Source: an uncultured bacterium (lineage in GTDB: Bacteria > Bacillota > Desulfotomaculia > Desulfotomaculales > Desulfallaceae). Taken from it: a DNA stretch of 64,000 bases. Numbering within the stretch: position 1 is the first letter of the stretch; every line of letters begins with the position of its first letter. Below, in pieces: positions 11,581 through 63,701 of this stretch. The stretch is from positions 24,244 to 88,243 of the forward strand of contig CBETWA010000002.1 in assembly GCA_965539975.1 (NCBI GenBank), given 5' to 3'. Made by a program: the position numbers and the translations under genes. The notes under the pieces are model-generated. The model made no database searches, had not been told where the DNA came from, and saw only the letters and a program-made list of their open reading frames with translations.

Positions 11581-12699
11581 TTGTACAACTAAGCTTCTCT
11601 CCTGACACTTTTTGAACGCTTAGTTTCCATCTGTTCCATATACTGGTTGATGGTTTCGATAGGTCTTCTACCCATATTTCGATATCCGCGGTGGGGACGT
11701 TCATTATTATAGTGGTATAGCCATTGATCAAAGTCGTTTTGTAAGGATTCAACGCTCTCAAAGAGTTTTTCACGGAAAACAACCCTAAAAAACTCTTCCA
11801 GGGCTGTCTTATTGAAACGCTCAACGAAACCATTGGTTTGAGGTCTACCAACTCTGGTTCTGCGATGTTCAATGTCGTTTAAAGCCAGGTATATCTCGTA
11901 TGGATGTGCTTGTGTTCCACAGTATTCACGACCATTATCCGTAAGTACTACCGATACGGTAATACCCCTGTCTTCATAAAAGGGTAGAACATCATTGTGA
12001 AGAACCGCTACAGCGCACTCCGGCAATTTGCCTGTATGAAGGAATCCAAAAGCATAGCTGCCATAGGTATCAACCACGGCTTGCATGTATACTCTGCCTA
12101 CACCTTTTAAGCTACCTACGTAAAAGGTGTCCTGAGCCAGTAATTCACCAGGTCGGCTGCTTTCAATATGGCGTTCACGAAAGCAGGGATTTGCTTTTTC
12201 AATAAGTGCGATTTGCTCAGCTGTAAGTTCGATAGGCTCTTTGGCGGCTTTCTCTTCAAGTTTTAAGAGCCGTTCGTACTTTGTGCCCATGTTATTTTTA
12301 ATCAAGATATTCTGTATGGTCGGAGAACTAACGTTTATTCCCTGCAGCTTTAGCATATCGCTAAGCTTTACACAACCCCAACCAGGGTGCTGAAGGCTTA
12401 AGGACAGTATCTTTTCCACCACCTCGGGTGGTGTGGTCTGGGGATGGCTTTTGTGAATAGGCGGGAGATCTTTTAAACCTTCAAGCCCGTGAGTTTGAAA
12501 ACGACGCTTGTACTCGTAAAACTGTGTCCTTGTCATACCGCGTTGTTTACATGCCTGGGAGACATTTCCCAAGGCTTCAGCCAGTTGCAACACGCTTAAA
12601 CGTTGACGGGCGACTTTTTCGGATGGATCCACTTTATCAACTCCTCCCATAACGTAATTTTACCAGTTAATTTGTTACGGGAGAAGCTTAGTAGTACAA
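11581..12699 (-). mobile_element. IS481-family insertion sequence (complete)
   Basis: The 19-bp terminal inverted repeats are TTGTACAACTAAGCTTCTC (11581-11599) and GAGAAGCTTAGTAGTACAA (12681-12699), with one mismatch. They enclose a single DDE transposase ORF. A possible TAAG duplication flanks the element. Confidence 0.85.
11589..12650 (-). CDS. IS481-family DDE transposase (HTH plus rve integrase core)
   Basis: The N-terminal HTH is LSVLQLAEALGNVSQACKQRGMTRTQFYEYKRRF. The core contains DTFYVG...TDNGREY...RPQTNGFVERFN. Confidence 0.9.
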   Translation of the reverse strand: MGGVDKVDPSEKVARQRLSVLQLAEALGNVSQACKQRGMTRTQFYEYKRRFQTHGLEGLKDLPPIHKSHPQTTPPEVVEKILSLSLQHPGWGCVKLSDMLKLQGINVSSPTIQNILIKNNMGTKYERLLKLEEKAAKEPIELTAEQIALIEKANPCFRERHIESSRPGELLAQDTFYVGSLKGVGRVYMQAVVDTYGSYAFGFLHTGKLPECAVAVLHNDVLPFYEDRGITVSVVLTDNGREYCGTQAHPYEIYLALNDIEHRRTRVGRPQTNGFVERFNKTALEEFFRVVFREKLFESVESLQNDFDQWLYHYNNERPHRGYRNMGRRPIETINQYMEQMETKRSKSVRREA

Positions 12700-26817: not shown

Positions 26818-28233
26818 ATGCAGGCCAAAAGAGACTGGGAAAAGATTATCAGGAGAATGGAGCAGTTGATGCGGCTCAAGTCTTTTCCGGTGGCTTTTAA
26901 AATGCTGGAAAACAAAAATGAACTGGAAAATATCCCCTTTATGCGCCGTATGAACAAGAAGGTCACCCTCTGCCAGCTAATCACCCTGGTCAGAAACTTT
27001 GACTGGACGGTGGGAGCCGAACTGTCCGACTTCCTTTCCCCGACCTGCGCTTCCATACTGGGCTTGGCGGATACCCCGGATTTTTACAAGGACGGCACCT
27101 TCCGCAGCATCGTCTGGGTTAAAAACCGGGAGGACGGCAAAAAGTACGAGGCCTCCATTCCCCGGCTGCCCCTGGGGAAATACCAGGCGGTGGCCATGGC
27201 CCCGCTGGTATACAACCCTTTTGAACCCGATATCGTGTTATTTTACGCCAACCCGGCCCAGATGATGCTCTTGATCAATTCCCTCCAGTTTGAAAATTAC
27301 GAGGTCATGCATTTCTACTGCGTGGGCGAGTCTTCCTGCTCCGACGCCATCGCCCGGTGTTACCTGACCGGTAAACCGTCCCTGACCATACCATGTTACG
27401 GTGAAAGGCGCTACGGGCACGCCCAGGACGATGAACTGGTGATGGCCGTGCCGGTGGACATGGTAGAGAAAGCATTGAAAGGCATGGAAGCCCTTTACCG
27501 CAGGGGAATCCGCTATCCCATCAGCTTTGCCGGTGCCGAGCAGGACTTGACAAGTGCCTTCCCCGGTTCTTACAGCAGCCTGGGACAGCTGGAACTCATC
27601 CGGGGTAGTGACAACCGCCTGTTGCTTGGAGTTACCGGGGGCATCGCCACCGGCAAGAGTACCGTGGTGGAAATGCTCCGGCAAAAGGGCGCTTACGTCA
27701 TCGATTTCGATTTGCTGGCCAGGAAAGTGGTAGAGCCCGGTAAGCCGGCCTGGAAGGATATTGTGGCTTATTTCGGGGAGCAAGTCCTGCGGGAAGACCG
27801 GGCACTGGACCGGAAGAAGCTGGCGGACCTGGTATTCAAGGATATGGAAAAGCGCAAGAAGCTGGAAAGTTTCACCCACCCCAGGATAAACGAGGAGTTC
27901 GTCAAGGAACTGGGCGATATTACATCCAGGGACCCGAACGCGATTATCATGGTTGACATACCACTGATGATCGAACTCAACCTGCAGTACATGTTCCATA
28001 AAACCCTGGTGGTCTACGTACCCCGGGAGATTCAGCTCGAACGGTTGATGAAACGCGACGGGATTAGCCGCGAGGAGGCGCTGAACAGGCTGGCGGCACA
28101 GCTGCCCATTGAAGAGAAGACAGGATACGCCGACTTTGTCATCAACAACGCGGGCCCGCTTGAAGATACACAAAAACAGGTGGATGAATTATGGGAGAAA
28201 CTGAAACAAATCCAGCGGGAAAAGATGGCATAA
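26818..28233 (+). CDS. coaE: Fusion protein: N-terminal DUF169 (COG2043) domain plus C-terminal dephospho-CoA kinase
   Basis: Residues ~1-255 are DUF169-like (FPVAFKML...CQL...PTCASILG...FYCVGESSCSD). From ~270 the protein reads LLLGVTGGIATGKSTVVEML...DFDLLAR...VDIPLMIE, which is typical CoaE. Confidence 0.7.
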   Translation: MQAKRDWEKIIRRMEQLMRLKSFPVAFKMLENKNELENIPFMRRMNKKVTLCQLITLVRNFDWTVGAELSDFLSPTCASILGLADTPDFYKDGTFRSIVWVKNREDGKKYEASIPRLPLGKYQAVAMAPLVYNPFEPDIVLFYANPAQMMLLINSLQFENYEVMHFYCVGESSCSDAIARCYLTGKPSLTIPCYGERRYGHAQDDELVMAVPVDMVEKALKGMEALYRRGIRYPISFAGAEQDLTSAFPGSYSSLGQLELIRGSDNRLLLGVTGGIATGKSTVVEMLRQKGAYVIDFDLLARKVVEPGKPAWKDIVAYFGEQVLREDRALDRKKLADLVFKDMEKRKKLESFTHPRINEEFVKELGDITSRDPNAIIMVDIPLMIELNLQYMFHKTLVVYVPREIQLERLMKRDGISREEALNRLAAQLPIEEKTGYADFVINNAGPLEDTQKQVDELWEKLKQIQREKMA

Positions 28234-28280
28234 TGCCGCAAGGCCAAAAAAACCGAGACTCCCATGCCGCTATCGCAACA

Positions 28281-28622
28281 CCAGCAGAAAGATAAACACA
28301 TATGGGTATACCTGTTCCGGTCGAGCGATTTGCGGGAGCGCCGGTAACGGCACCCAGCGTAGCGAGGTTACGAAACCGGACGAGCGAACAGGACGTTCGC
28401 GAAAGCCTTTCCCGAACCGCAGACGGTGAGTTTATGGCGGTCCGGTTTCGGAAAGCGGTCAGGGGACACACCTCCCCTTTGGGGTCAAATCTTTTGGGTC
28501 GGAGGTATGTCCCCAACGGATAAGCCGCTGGTGCTGTCGACGCGGAAGTCTAAAGCGCTGCGGGGACCACCAGCCCACAAGAGACAAAAAAGTATTTTCT
28601 GGGTAGTATTTTCCGGGTAGAT
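28281..28622 (+). repeat. Structured multicopy element, copy R1 (5' end and core intact; 3' module replaced)
   Basis: GGGTATACCTGTTCCGG starts at 28304 and is collinear with 40510 onwards up to about 28555. It then carries GCGGGGACCACCAGCCCAC and a tandem AGTATTTTCYGG outer motif. Confidence 0.8.
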
Positions 28623-29237: not shown

Positions 29238-29504
29238 CTTTCCACTAAAAATAAAATATTTTTACCGCACATTATTATACCATACAGCCGGGGGACGGGC
29301 TACTTTTTACTTTTCTCTACCTTTTGCAGCAATCCTTTCGTTCACGCGCACTTGACGATTCGCTGGCATCAATTTAAGTACCGCCGGGATGCCATTAAAA
29401 CCGTTTTTTTGACAATGCGCTATAATAAAAAGTCCCGGTCAAACCGTGTAGGTGCCGGGACTTTGTTATCACCTGTTATGTTGAACTATACTTTTACTGC
29501 TGTA

Positions 29505-29562
29505 CCGGAACAGGTATACCCATGCCCAAGAGTATTTTCTGGGCAGTATTTTCCGGATAGAC
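29505..29562 (+). repeat. Solo terminus of the multicopy element (TIR plus outer subterminal repeats only)
   Basis: CCGGAACAGGTATACCC is followed by ...AGTATTTTCTGGGCAGTATTTTCCGGATAGA. No element core is adjacent. Confidence 0.7.
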
Positions 29563-29570
29563 CTCCATGC

Positions 29571-29995
29571 CGCGCTGCGGCACCAGCAGTAAGATGAAAA
29601 TAGCACTGGGGTGGGCTGGTGGCTCCCCGCAAGTGATGTACTGGAGCGTCGGTAACGGCACCCGGCGCAGCGAGGCTACGAAACCGGACGAGCGAACAGG
29701 ACGTTCGCGAAAGCCTTTCCCGAACCGCAGACGGTGAGTTTATGGCGGTCCGGTTTCGGAAAGCAGTCAGGGGACACACCTCCCTTTTTGGGTCGAAACT
29801 TTTGGGTCGGAGGTATGTCCCCAACGTATAAGACGCTGGTGCCGCCGGCGCGGGAGTTTTTAAACTCAGTGACGGTCGCCGCCGCCCGTGATATGTTCTT
29901 ATCCTTCTAAATGGTGCCGTTTTGGTAATGCGTCACCTATTGGGAAAAAGCGAGACGGAACAGGTATACCTATACTAAGGAGCGTTTTCCGGGTG
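29571..29995 (+). repeat. Structured multicopy element, copy R2 (canonical 5' TIR replaced; core, 3' module and 3' TIR intact)
   Basis: The outer 5' flank GCGGCACCAGCAGTAAGATGAAAATAGCACT resembles the R5 and R1 flanks. GTGGGCTGGTGGCTCCCCGC then replaces the TIR. From 29643 the copy is collinear with R3 and ends CGGAACAGGTATACC at 29970. Confidence 0.8.
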
Positions 29996-30007
29996 GTTTA
30001 AACAAGT

Positions 30008-32589: not shown

Positions 32590-32629
32590 CCTGGTGCCGG
32601 GTGTTGCGATTTGGAGTTGTTGCGATTTT
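32590..32629 (+). repeat. Short intergenic repeat, copy 2 of 3
   Basis: The sequence is CCTGGTGCCGGGTGTTGCGATTTGGAGTTGTTGCGATTTT. It lies about 20 nt after the preceding stop codon. Confidence 0.55.
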
Positions 32630-40398: not shown

Positions 40399-40482
40399 GC
40401 GCTCACCCGCTTGGAAATATGTGAAATAATTGACTCACTTAATTGTTTTTATATTGTACCTTAATTCCTATTAAAAAAAAAT

Positions 40483-40885
40483 CTCTACCCACAAAATACT
40501 CTTGAGTGCGGGTATACCTGTTCCGGTGGAGCGACTTGCAGGAGCGCCGGTAACGGCACCCGGCGCAGCGAGGTTAAAAAACCGGACGAGCGAACGTGAT
40601 GTTCGCGAAAGCCTTCCCCGAACCGCAGATGGCGAGTTTATGGCGGTCCGGTTTCGGAAAGCGATCAGGGGACATACCTCCTCTTTAGGGTCTAATCTTT
40701 GGGGCCAAAGGTATGTCCCCAGCGTATAAGCCGCTGGTGCCGCCGGCGCAGGAGTTTTTAAAGGCAGTGGTGGTTTTTGCCCGTCAATATGTTCTTATCC
40801 TCACCAATGGTGCTGCTACTGTAGTGCGTAACCTGTTTAGAAAAAGCGAGACGGAACAGGTATACCCACGTGTACTTTTATCCTT
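40483..40885 (+). repeat. Structured multicopy element, copy R3 (full length; type copy)
   Basis: The core runs from 40510 GGGTATACCTGTTCCGG to CGGAACAGGTATACCC at 40867, with conserved outer flanks of about 20-30 nt. It is intergenic. Confidence 0.85.
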
Positions 40886-50426: not shown

Positions 50427-50855
50427 TTACTTGACCAGCGTTACCGGATTTTTAGCATAGTGAAGCACCTGGTGGCTTACGCTGCCCATAACCAGCCCCT
50501 TTATATTACTCAGTCCCCTGGAACCCATGACAATCTGGTTAAAGCCGCCCTCTTCAGCGAACCAGGCAATTTCCTGGCCGGGGTCGCCCTCAAGAACAAC
50601 CTTGTTAACCTTTATGCCTTCATTTTCAAATATGGCCACCATGTCATCAACCACCTGCTTGCCCTGTTCCCTGACAATTTTCTCAATAGCGTCTATGTCC
50701 GCAAAAACGGAATAGTTGAATATTTCTTTTCTCACATTTATCACGTGCACCACAGTAACCTCGGCCTGCTTGTGTTCCCTGACCAGGTCCAACAAGAAAT
50801 AGGCCGCTCGCCGGGAGTTATCCGAGCCGTCCGCCGCCAGCAAGTATTTTCTCAT
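50427..50855 (-). CDS. Universal stress protein (UspA family)
   Basis: It contains KYLLAADGSDNSRRA...IVMGSRGLSNIKGLVMGSVSHQVLHYAKNPV. Confidence 0.85.
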   Translation of the reverse strand: MRKYLLAADGSDNSRRAAYFLLDLVREHKQAEVTVVHVINVRKEIFNYSVFADIDAIEKIVREQGKQVVDDMVAIFENEGIKVNKVVLEGDPGQEIAWFAEEGGFNQIVMGSRGLSNIKGLVMGSVSHQVLHYAKNPVTLVK

Positions 50856-50890
50856 ATTCCACGCCTCCTTGGACAGTTTTATGGTCTATC

Positions 50891-51069
50891 AAAAATGCTC
50901 TTGAGTTTAGGTATACCTGTTCCGTCTCGCTTTTTCTAAACAGGTGATGCACCACATAAAAAATACCACTGGTGAGGATAAGAACATATTTACTGGCAGC
51001 AACCACCACCGTGCTTAAAAACTCCCGCGCCGACGGTACCAACGGCTTATACGCTGGGAATATACCTCC
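50891..51069 (-). repeat. Structured multicopy element, copy R4 (3' half only, opposite orientation)
   Basis: The plus strand reads AAAATGCTCTTGAGTTTAGGTATACCTGTTCCGTCTCGCTTTTTC..., the reverse complement of the R3 3' module. Homology stops inside the 14-bp hairpin (GGAGGTATA at ~51069). Confidence 0.75.
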
Positions 51070-51437
51070 GTTTAATATTTTAACACTTTTTATGTAGGAA
51101 TTCATTTTTCATCAAGGCAAAATTCTTTCACCATCCCCCTCCGGCCCGGCAGCTCCCCGCCATACGCCGGGCGAACCCTGCTGCCGCCGCTGTTTGCAAA
51201 AGATTCACCCGCATATAATCCCTACAGCAGCACCTGGTGGAAAAGCAAATAAGGGAAGTCCTTGCAAAATGTCACTTCCCAAATAGCGTTGAAATCCCCA
51301 ATGGTCATGTTTCAATATATAATAACAGGTAAATTGTAACAACAGGTATTGGATCAAAATAAAAATCGCCTGAAAATATAACGCATTAGGAATATATTGC
51401 CAGACCCCATGCAGCATCGTTATTGAAGGAGGAAACA

Positions 51438-54305: not shown

Positions 54306-54345
54306 CCTGGTGCCGGGTGTTGAAATTTGAGTTTGTTGCGATCTT
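54306..54345 (+). repeat. Short intergenic repeat, copy 3 of 3
   Basis: CCTGGTGCCGGGTGTTGAAATTTGAGTTTGTTGCGATCTT lies immediately after the terminator. Confidence 0.55.
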
Positions 54346-58190: not shown

Positions 58191-58286
58191 TGGAGGGGAG
58201 AAGTCGGAATCGAACCGGACTCCCGCCTGGATCACAGGCAGGCCAACGGGTTTGCAGCCCGCGGGGGGACCATCCCCTTTCTCCCC
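58191..58286 (-). tRNA. tRNA-Sec-like tRNA with Cys anticodon GCA and U73 (8-bp acceptor, long variable arm, encoded CCA)
   Basis: My hand fold of GGGGAGAAAGGGGAUGGUCCCCCCGCGGGCUGCAAACCCGUUGGCCUGCCUGUGAUCCAGGCGGGAGUCCGGUUCGAUUCCGACUUCUCCCCUCCA is detailed in the finding. The T-loop is UUCGAUU. Its own promoter TTGGAA-N18-TAGAAT ends about 8 nt upstream. Confidence 0.8.
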
Positions 58287-63092: not shown

Positions 63093-63195
63093 CACTGCAA
63101 TGCCTATTTTTAGTTTTCCTCCTAGCCACTGGCGTCAAGCCGGGCTTCTCCGGCTTTTTCCTCCGGTGCTTTTTCTATAGACCCCCATACCGTGT

Positions 63196-63460
63196 AGCGG
63201 CACCAGCAAAGAATGAAAATACTAGTGGGTATACCTGTTCCGGTCGAGCGATTTGCGGGAGCGCCGGTAACGGCACCCGGCGCAGCGAGGTTACGAAACC
63301 GGACGAGCGGCCAGGACGGCCGCGAGAGCCATAATCCGAACCATGGATGGTGAGTTTATGGCGGTCCGGTTTCGTCCGAAGCAAGCCTTGGTGCCGTCGG
63401 CGCGGGAGTATATGAGCGAGACGGAACAGGTATACCCATAATAAAAAGCGTTTTCCTGGT
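63196..63460 (+). repeat. Structured multicopy element, copy R5 (short form lacking two internal modules)
   Basis: The core runs from 63227 GGGTATACCTGTTCCGG to CGGAACAGGTATACCC at 63437. It keeps the termini, the GUAA hairpin, the AAACCGGAC/GUCCGGUUU helix and the GGUGCCGUCGGCGC arm. It lacks the 14-bp hairpin module and the ~110-nt 3' module. Confidence 0.8.
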
Positions 63461-63701
63461 GACATCCCCGTCTTCACCATATCCCGGCATGTAACCTTTG
63501 CAGCCGGGCGCGTAACCTGTTCAATCATTCCCATGACTGCTCAGCGACATGTCGAAGTGGGCGCACCTTCGCCCCTGCACTGGTATTTACTAACATAGTA
63601 TTTTATTCCAATCCAATGGGTTACGAGGGAGCCATATTTATGTTGTTGTTTACTTCCTTGCAAGTACAACTTCTGCCGCTTAAGTACTTGTCTTTCCAGA
63701 T

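Follow-up and report, generated by a model that had tools for sequence, protein, structure and literature searches.

Dispersed intergenic repeats in a Desulfallaceae genome are copies of a TwoAYGGAY-class element and probably mobile

INTRODUCTION

A structured, non-coding segment of about 0.4 kb recurs between genes in a 64,000-nucleotide stretch of DNA from an uncultured bacterium of the Desulfallaceae (Bacillota; assembly GCA_965539975.1, contig CBETWA010000002.1, positions 24,244 to 88,243 of the forward strand), here called the window. What is this repeat, and how did it come to lie at several places in one region? An earlier description made from the letters alone (the sequence-only reading) had listed five copies and a solo end, with long inverted repeats at the termini and a self-complementary interior. 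It left two options, a mobile element resembling a MITE (a miniature transposable element with inverted repeats) or a family of structured RNAs. Our analysis supports each of these options in part, and they are not mutually exclusive: compensatory base changes point to a structure, and dispersal, decay and an empty site in relatives point to mobility. We consider it likely that the repeats are dispersed copies of a TwoAYGGAY-class element, of a Bacillota type with a very long basal stem, and that this element is mobile but non-autonomous.

Weinberg et al. (2010, PMC2864571) introduced TwoAYGGAY as an orphan motif that occurs in Clostridia, in Gammaproteobacteria and in the human gut. The original alignment includes four copies of a species related to the host of the window, Pelotomaculum thermopropionicum, and the supplement calls the closing stem P1 "often very large" (PMC2864571). 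At least five copies are present in Psychromonas ingrahamii. A preprint reports a median of 11 to 23 and up to 202 copies per Pseudomonas genome, with flanking repeats, divergent doublets and a "mobile-element-like" expansion, and describes an elongated basal stem in Bacillota (10.64898/2026.09.22.753630). The family and its multicopy, mobile-like behavior are already known; what is new here is a long variant that the Rfam model misses, and it does not constitute a new class.

RESULTS

We looked for the repeat across the 64-kb window with a repeat finder, an alignment of the five copies, and BLASTN at low stringency with four of the copies as queries. The repeat family comprises five non-coding loci and one solo end, all of them where the sequence-only reading had placed them, and the low-stringency search with the four copies found no further copies in the window. 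The inverted similarity that had been seen to continue outward from the ends is real; it reaches approximately 30 to 45 nt past the 17-bp core of the outer stem, not 20 to 30 nt, and the copies are longer than had been listed. The type copy, of the long form, spans 40478-40885 on the plus strand and has both arms of the outer stem. Its start and end had been quoted correctly, letter for letter, and its 3' boundary is uncertain and possibly lies up to ~40 nt further out. Two other long-form copies lie on the plus strand at 28254-28622 and 29557-29997 (previously begun at 28281 and 29571). The 3' half of a further long-form copy, with its 5' half deleted, lies on the minus strand at 50892-51070, ~25 nt upstream of the ribosome-binding site (RBS) of a minus-strand gene whose product starts MRKYLLAADGSDNS. 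The short form is represented by the best-preserved copy, at 63177-63465 on the plus strand. The solo end (29499-29560, outer arm at 29505-29521) exists as noted and is a truncated minus-strand copy, of which a left-type end remains and not a 3' end; its interior bases CCGGTACAGCAG are similar to the left-arm side CCGGTCGAGCGA and unlike the right-arm side CCGTCTCGCT. It stands head-to-head with the copy at 29557-29997.

The identity of the long copies with the short copy, or among themselves, is 85-88%. In pairwise BLASTN the long copies shared 84-92% identity over 226-329 nt among themselves, and the short and long forms shared 85-86% over 148-198 nt (E 1e-41 to 1e-100). The only open reading frames (ORFs) that overlap the copies are not conserved from copy to copy, and the type copy contains no ORF of at least 80 aa. 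The G+C content of the window is 50.8%.

The Rfam covariance search that the sequence-only reading had proposed assigned the repeat to a known family, where that reading could match it to none. The short copy (63253-63411) scored 51.3 bits against RF01731 (TwoAYGGAY; model length 168, curated gathering score 43 bits), covering model positions 1-168, on the plus strand only, with an E-value of 1.8e-5 for the whole window. Moreover, the founding alignment of the family holds close homologues from Pelotomaculum: the short copy and the four P. thermopropionicum copies of 2010 have a mean column identity of 79% over 219 columns, and two of the latter have the same layout as the short copy. The copies at 28254 and 29557 matched the model with 27.7 bits, below the gathering score and over the two-hairpin core only. 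Because the Rfam threshold is not reached, the membership of the type copy and the other long copies rests on their homology to the short copy, which for the type copy amounts to 86% identity across 148 nt. The short copy is the canonical form of the element, and the 0.4-kb form is a derived subfamily.

The unit folds into a near-palindromic rod that consists of an outer stem (P0), a purine-rich linker with GAGCGA on both strands, a stem P1 with a UAA bulge, a stem P2, and two terminal hairpins (H1 and H2), which canonically carry AYGGAY loops. P0 has a perfect core of 16-17 bp and an imperfect extension to ~45 bp. In the type copy its 5' arm GGGTATACCTGTTCCGG lies at 40510-40526 and its 3' arm CGGAACAGGTATACCC at 40852-40867; those of the short copy occupy 63227-63243 and 63422-63437. 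The 5' arm is invariant at all ends in the window, and the helix covaries with the Pelotomaculum copies. P1 is formed by GCGCCGG(UAA)CGGCACC (40544-40560) and GGUGCCGYCGGCGC, in the type copy GGTGCCGCCGGCGC (40736-40749). The core (40579-40654, plus strand like the other parts) consists of P2, AAACCGGAC / GTCCGGTTT, enclosing H1 (40590-40606, loop GUGAU) and H2 (40611-40644, loop CAGAUGG).

Base changes between genera preserve this structure. We derived a consensus fold of ~70 pairs from a five-sequence alignment of the short copy and the four Pelotomaculum copies (Pt1 to Pt4), in which more than 30 pairs change on both sides yet stay paired, with few cells unpaired. Compensatory changes are present in every helix, including P1 and the hairpins H1 and H2 inside P2, and nine compensated positions fall in P0. 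P0 reads GGGUAUACCUGUUCCGG/CCGGAACAGGUAUACCC in the window and GGGCGGUGCUUUGUCA/UGACAAAGCACCGCC in Pelotomaculum; P2 reads AAACCGGAC/GUCCGGUUU in the window and AAAUUGGGG/CCCAAUUU in Pelotomaculum. Compensation is also seen within the window, where GCGAAC/GUUCGC of H1 changes to GCGGCC/GGCCGC. Hence, the long terminal inverted repeats described earlier are present, and they are the outermost closing stem of a conserved fold that covaries between species. Covariation in Pt1 to Pt4 also backs the long-range helix that had been offered as an alternative pairing for P1. The local GNRA hairpin GCCG-GUAA-CGGC, by contrast, is part of P1 and cannot form in Pt3 and Pt4. The region 63170-63500 folds on the plus strand as a rod with a z-score of -6.5, the type copy has a z-score of -3.6, and the plus strand folds 5-14 kcal/mol better than the minus strand in all four copies compared.

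Could the repeat be a MITE of the ordinary kind, derived by deletion from a DDE-type insertion sequence, with the 17-bp repeats as transposase binding sites and with folding that is incidental? The element is small, non-coding, multicopy and intergenic, and its terminal inverted repeats are perfect and sequence-invariant at eight arms. The 15-nt P0 core GGTATACCTGTTCCG has zero mismatches at eight ends, as against 27% of the core columns varying among four copies (a crude chance estimate for eight of eight invariant arms is 8e-5). The outer-arm sequences differ by lineage, as co-evolving transposon ends would, and an insertion polymorphism (see below) and a solo end would also be expected. A MITE interior, however, should not be 79% identical between genera with more than 20 compensatory pairs outside P0, and the same core fold would not be expected in Gammaproteobacteria, where it is known (PMC2864571; 10.64898/2026.09.22.753630). 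In addition, no target duplication was detected, and neither the type copy searched against plasmid records nor the short copy searched against phage records gave a BLASTN match. The termini match no known insertion sequence in the window, which contains no transposase with ends matching P0; its sole transposase-encoding element is IS481-like, with unrelated ends. We therefore regard a MITE of this kind as improbable.

The short form is ~290 nt long and is made up of P0, linker, P1, P2, H1 and H2, with the loops CAGGAC in H1 (one base short of AYGGAY) and AUGGAU in H2. The long form carries two additional modules. The first is an extra hairpin after P2 (40668-40720, plus strand), absent from the short form and the Pelotomaculum copies; the 14 bp that had been reported for it hold for the copies at 28254 and 29557, and in the type copy it has 12 pairs, with the 3' strand AAAGGUAUGUCCCC. 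The second is a 3' extension of ~100 nt between P1 and the outer stem (40750-40851, plus strand), absent from the short form. The lower stem of H2 is disrupted in the long form and its loop lacks GGA: the copies at 28254 and 29557 have CAGGAC in H1 and CAGACG in H2. The number of GGA loops is thus two in the short copy, one in each of these two long copies and zero in the type copy. The long form accounts for four of the five copies in the window, and since its features are common to all long copies, they predate the spread of the subfamily.

In the long forms GGAGTTTTTAA, a U run of terminator type, comes after the 3' strand of P1. This run, GGAGUUUUUAA, lies directly after P1 (40750-40759, and at the same position in the copies at 29557 and 50892) and resembles that of an intrinsic terminator; the short form has GGAGUAUAUGA there.

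The loops bear on another explanation, in which the copies are chromosomal small-RNA genes that sequester CsrA through GGA loops and were multiplied by duplication and recombination, not by transposition. TwoAYGGAY has been proposed as a CsrA-binding RNA (PMC4333381) and as a multivalent Csr/Rsm sponge (10.64898/2026.09.22.753630); the fold is strand biased, and the two terminal loops of the short copy, CAGGAC and AUGGAU, contain GGA, as do hairpin loops of CsrB/RsmZ-type small RNAs. Yet it is the long form, with GGA in one loop only or, in the type copy, in none, that supplies most of the copies. CsrB/RsmZ-type sponges have many GGA sites, their own regulated promoter and terminator, and are usually single genes, whereas the copies in the window have at most two GGA sites, have no conserved promoter that we could find, and are repeated and decaying. 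Their orientation relative to neighboring genes is inconsistent, and the truncated copies and the solo end suggest decay rather than maintained genes. No CsrA-like ORF is present within the window, which says nothing about the rest of the genome. Because the long form has spread without the GGA loops, spreading is independent of them, and we give the explanation by sponge genes little probability.

How are the copies distributed? They extend across 35 kb, beside genes that are unrelated; either strand can carry a copy, and the orientation to the neighbors is sense for some copies and antisense for others. These neighbors have ordinary housekeeping functions: the genes encode a fusion of DUF169 with CoaE, a LysM protein, an SRAP peptidase, an isopropylmalate/isocitrate dehydrogenase and a DASS transporter, as well as a CBS protein, HPP, DUF362 and a TPP enzyme. 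Truncation has affected two of the copies, and the ends of two have been exchanged. The copy at 28254 retains its left P0 arm (28304-28320), and its 3' extension and right arm are replaced by TGCGGGGACCACCAGCCCAC (28559-28578); the copy at 29557 retains its right arm (29956-29970), and its left arm is replaced by GTGGGCTGGTGGCTCCCCGCA (29611-29631). The two replacement sequences form a 20-nt inverted repeat, being reverse complements that match at 20 of 21 positions, and stand in for the right outer arm of the first copy and the left outer arm of the second. The two copies thus have reciprocal chimeric ends that bracket the LysM gene. Recombination between two subfamilies is one possible origin of these ends.

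The same two copies lie 1.3 kb apart and are mutual closest relatives with 91.6% identity, which could be taken to suggest local segmental duplication; the U run that the long forms have after P1 could likewise be taken for part of an immobile cis-regulatory leader or terminator. Both proposals are contradicted by the results, and we give them practically no credence. The copies are not confined to one region as segmental duplications would be: they lie among unrelated genes in both orientations, flanking sequence was not co-duplicated, homologues are present in another genus, and an orthologous site is empty.

This empty site was found by the comparison with relatives that the sequence-only reading had suggested. 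Protein matches put the host, known from a metagenome-assembled contig of 137,997 bp, among Desulfotomaculum-like Bacillota, and its nearest relatives have 83-85% protein identity in the DASS transporter. Upstream of the gene for this transporter, where the window carries the type copy, the element is absent in the genomes L106 (GCA_003512665.1) and L107. The intergenic spacer measures 209 bp in L106 and 597 bp in the window, and the promoter-proximal sequence is conserved. An inverted 30-nt segment, CCCGGCAT...ATATAATT, between the 3' flank of the type copy and the empty site in L106 was discarded, as 93 of 300 shuffles reached its score. No empty sites were recovered for the other copies; the relatives found through the SRAP and TPP-enzyme genes were non-syntenic on the relevant side or their contigs were too short. 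No TwoAYGGAY match was found in 74 kb of sequence from relatives.

The 15-nt arm GGTATACCTGTTCCG gave 105 loci in a 596-Gb genome collection, all single chance matches of a pattern that is too short, and a 24-position degenerate arm pattern gave only three chance matches in JGI metagenome contigs, from which the subfamily is absent. Two independent Logan assemblies, each of a different sample, have contigs that stop within the right P0 arm of the copy at 29557, which fits a repeat because repeats break assemblies. A possible second minus-strand end remnant upstream of the short copy was rejected as too weak (a 16-nt match only, with 2-3 of 500 shuffles reaching its score). No long target duplications of the kind seen around two Pelotomaculum copies are present at the copies in the window.

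A near-palindromic unit with a head-to-head doublet also invites comparison with REPINs, long hairpins of single-stranded DNA that would be moved by a Y1 transposase (RAYT or IS200/IS605 type) recognizing folded DNA. A structure kept by compensation is as compatible with folded single-stranded DNA as with RNA, target duplications were not found, and in Pseudomonas fluorescens SBW25 arrays of REP sequences occur at a fixed position beside TwoAYGGAY matches (10.64898/2026.09.22.753630). On the other hand, the scan of window proteins revealed no RAYT or Y1 transposase, the left ends showed no conserved target tetranucleotide, and G-U pairs and the energy bias favor one strand, which is a better fit to RNA. 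We judge a REPIN-like origin to be very improbable.

Several other features of the window lie close to the copies. A single plus-strand ORF (26818-28233) encodes a DUF169 domain and dephospho-CoA kinase (CoaE). The copy at 28254 starts 21 nt past the stop codon of this ORF and before the next terminator-like hairpin and, because of this position, would be co-transcribed as a 3' untranslated region. Near the truncated copy, a minus-strand RBS and an ATG at ~50866 open a gene whose product starts MRKYLLAADGSDNSRRAA and which we take to resemble a universal stress protein; the copy ends ~25 nt upstream of the RBS. A plus-strand ORF of 159 aa (50460-50939) has no Pfam match and is probably spurious.

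Other features of the window are separate from the repeat. An IS481-family element (11581-12699) encodes a 353-aa transposase on the minus strand (rve_3, HTH_32) between 27-bp imperfect inverted ends, TTGTACAACTAAGCTTCTCTCCTGACA / TGTTACGGGAGAAGCTTAGTAGTACAA, which are unrelated to the repeat, as the sequence-only reading had said of the IS481 ends. A 40-nt direct repeat, CCTGGTGCCGGGTGTTGCGATTTGGAGTTGTTGCGATTTT, occurs with 85% identity at 32590-32629 and 54306-54345, two unrelated intergenic or gene-start positions. A selenocysteine tRNA lies on the minus strand at 58195-58286 (Rfam tRNA-Sec, 48.1 bits).

DISCUSSION

Our work identified the intergenic repeats of the window as TwoAYGGAY elements that have dispersed into unrelated sites and decay there. 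Several observations weigh against the conclusion that they represent a non-autonomous mobile element. The copy count is that of the window alone. The type copy does not match RF01731 even at E<=1, and GGA is present in neither of its terminal loops. An empty site is known for one locus only, with its left boundary not resolved, and the data contain no sign of present-day movement of any copy. No flanking direct repeat above shuffled controls was found at any copy, the ends being too imprecise for duplications of 2-5 bp to be judged, and no mobilizing protein for the repeat was identified in the window. No promoter-like site common to the copies was found. Finally, the interior also holds a 23-nt invariant run, and the invariance of P0 could reflect recent homogenization instead of recognition by a protein. 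We nevertheless consider a non-autonomous mobile element of the TwoAYGGAY class the likely identity of the repeat.

The closest known counterparts are in P. thermopropionicum, where two copies (NC_009454, 2855627-2855162 and 95911-96376) have the same architecture from the outer stem to the terminal hairpins. Copies in the window and in Pelotomaculum share the blocks GCGCCGGUAAC(A/G)GCAC, GAGGUU(A/G)CGAAA, GGUGAGUU and CCGAAGCAAGC, a long perfect basal stem, and the presence of several copies per genome. In contrast, the sequence of the outer stem is entirely different (GGGUAUACCUGUUCCGG in the window and GGGCGGUGCUUUGUCA in Pelotomaculum), and four of the five copies in the window are of the long variant, with an added hairpin, a 100-nt 3' segment, a degenerate H2 and loss of the AYGGAY loops, and score below the threshold.

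At two other Pelotomaculum copies (NC_009454, 2842760-2842205 and 444730-444176), one and the same terminator-like hairpin recurs in direct orientation on either side of the element (PMC2864571 supplement). The hairpin is specific to the locus, GGCCGCCUUGAAACAGGCGGCC at one and GAGGGCUUAAUAUAAGCCUUC at the other, and the arrangement resembles a ~23-bp target duplication or, alternatively, an association with REP-like hairpins. In a human gut sequence (BABG01005149, 1225-664), ~100 nt past the 3' end of the TwoAYGGAY copy, the C-terminus of a tyrosine recombinase (...DIYLVADVLGHKDVNTTRKHYAAL...) is encoded on the opposite strand, as read off the sequence printed in PMC2864571. Three gut copies have a motif, UAACUUUCUAUUUAC, in common just outside the element (PMC2864571).

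The extended TwoAYGGAY form of Pseudomonas is likewise multicopy and confined to intergenic regions, varies in copy number between relatives, occurs in close or head-to-head pairs, and has been suggested to spread in a mobile-like manner (10.64898/2026.09.22.753630). Only the Pseudomonas form has three extra hairpins and a 3' pseudoknot, with arrays of 5-6-nt repeats upstream and REP arrays downstream; none of these was seen in the window, and the extra modules of the long form are at positions other than those of the Pseudomonas hairpins. The genome of SBW25 has 48 TwoAYGGAY matches (10.64898/2026.09.22.753630), and the 2009 genome paper reports 47 copies of a 320-bp intergenic repeat family, R200 (PMC2718517); the two may be one element. 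Correia elements, ERIC and the R0 and R2 repeats of Pseudomonas fluorescens (PMC2718517) are also small, non-coding intergenic repeats with inverted ends, long hairpins and variable occupancy. R0 and R2 have the same ends as an insertion sequence that has been identified (PMC2718517), whereas the repeat in the window has no known partner and no visible target duplication. Unlike bacterial MITEs, it has an interior that is conserved with compensatory changes across genera and phyla.

How might such an element spread? We hypothesize that a factor encoded at another place in the genome copies the unit to new sites, and that this factor would recognize the sequence of the outer stem and possibly also the folded single strand. 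Canonical copies, if transcribed by read-through, may in addition bind CsrA via their GGA loops. A further idea is that TwoAYGGAY constitutes a distinct mobile class, in which the conserved fold of a transcript or of single-stranded DNA would itself serve as substrate or guide when a host- or element-encoded enzyme inserts the unit next to hairpins, for instance intrinsic terminators. It is hinted at by the conservation of structure across phyla in an element that spreads, by the spread of the long form after loss of the AYGGAY loops, and by the two Pelotomaculum copies flanked by the same hairpin, as in a ~23-bp target duplication. We hold this idea to be unlikely.

TwoAYGGAY has been an orphan since 2010, and its description as variable in copy number and mobile-like dates only from September 2026 and concerns mainly Pseudomonas. 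The window provides a compact case from a Desulfotomaculum-like member of the Bacillota, with a canonical short form, a long subfamily, truncated copies, exchanged ends, a head-to-head pair and one empty site. For annotation, the long form escapes the Rfam model, and gene callers may place spurious ORFs on it. The most multiplied subfamily has lost the GGA loops, and the spread of the element and the proposed CsrA binding are therefore separable. An outer stem that is invariant within a genome and entirely different in a related genus is what a lineage-specific recognition site would be expected to look like.

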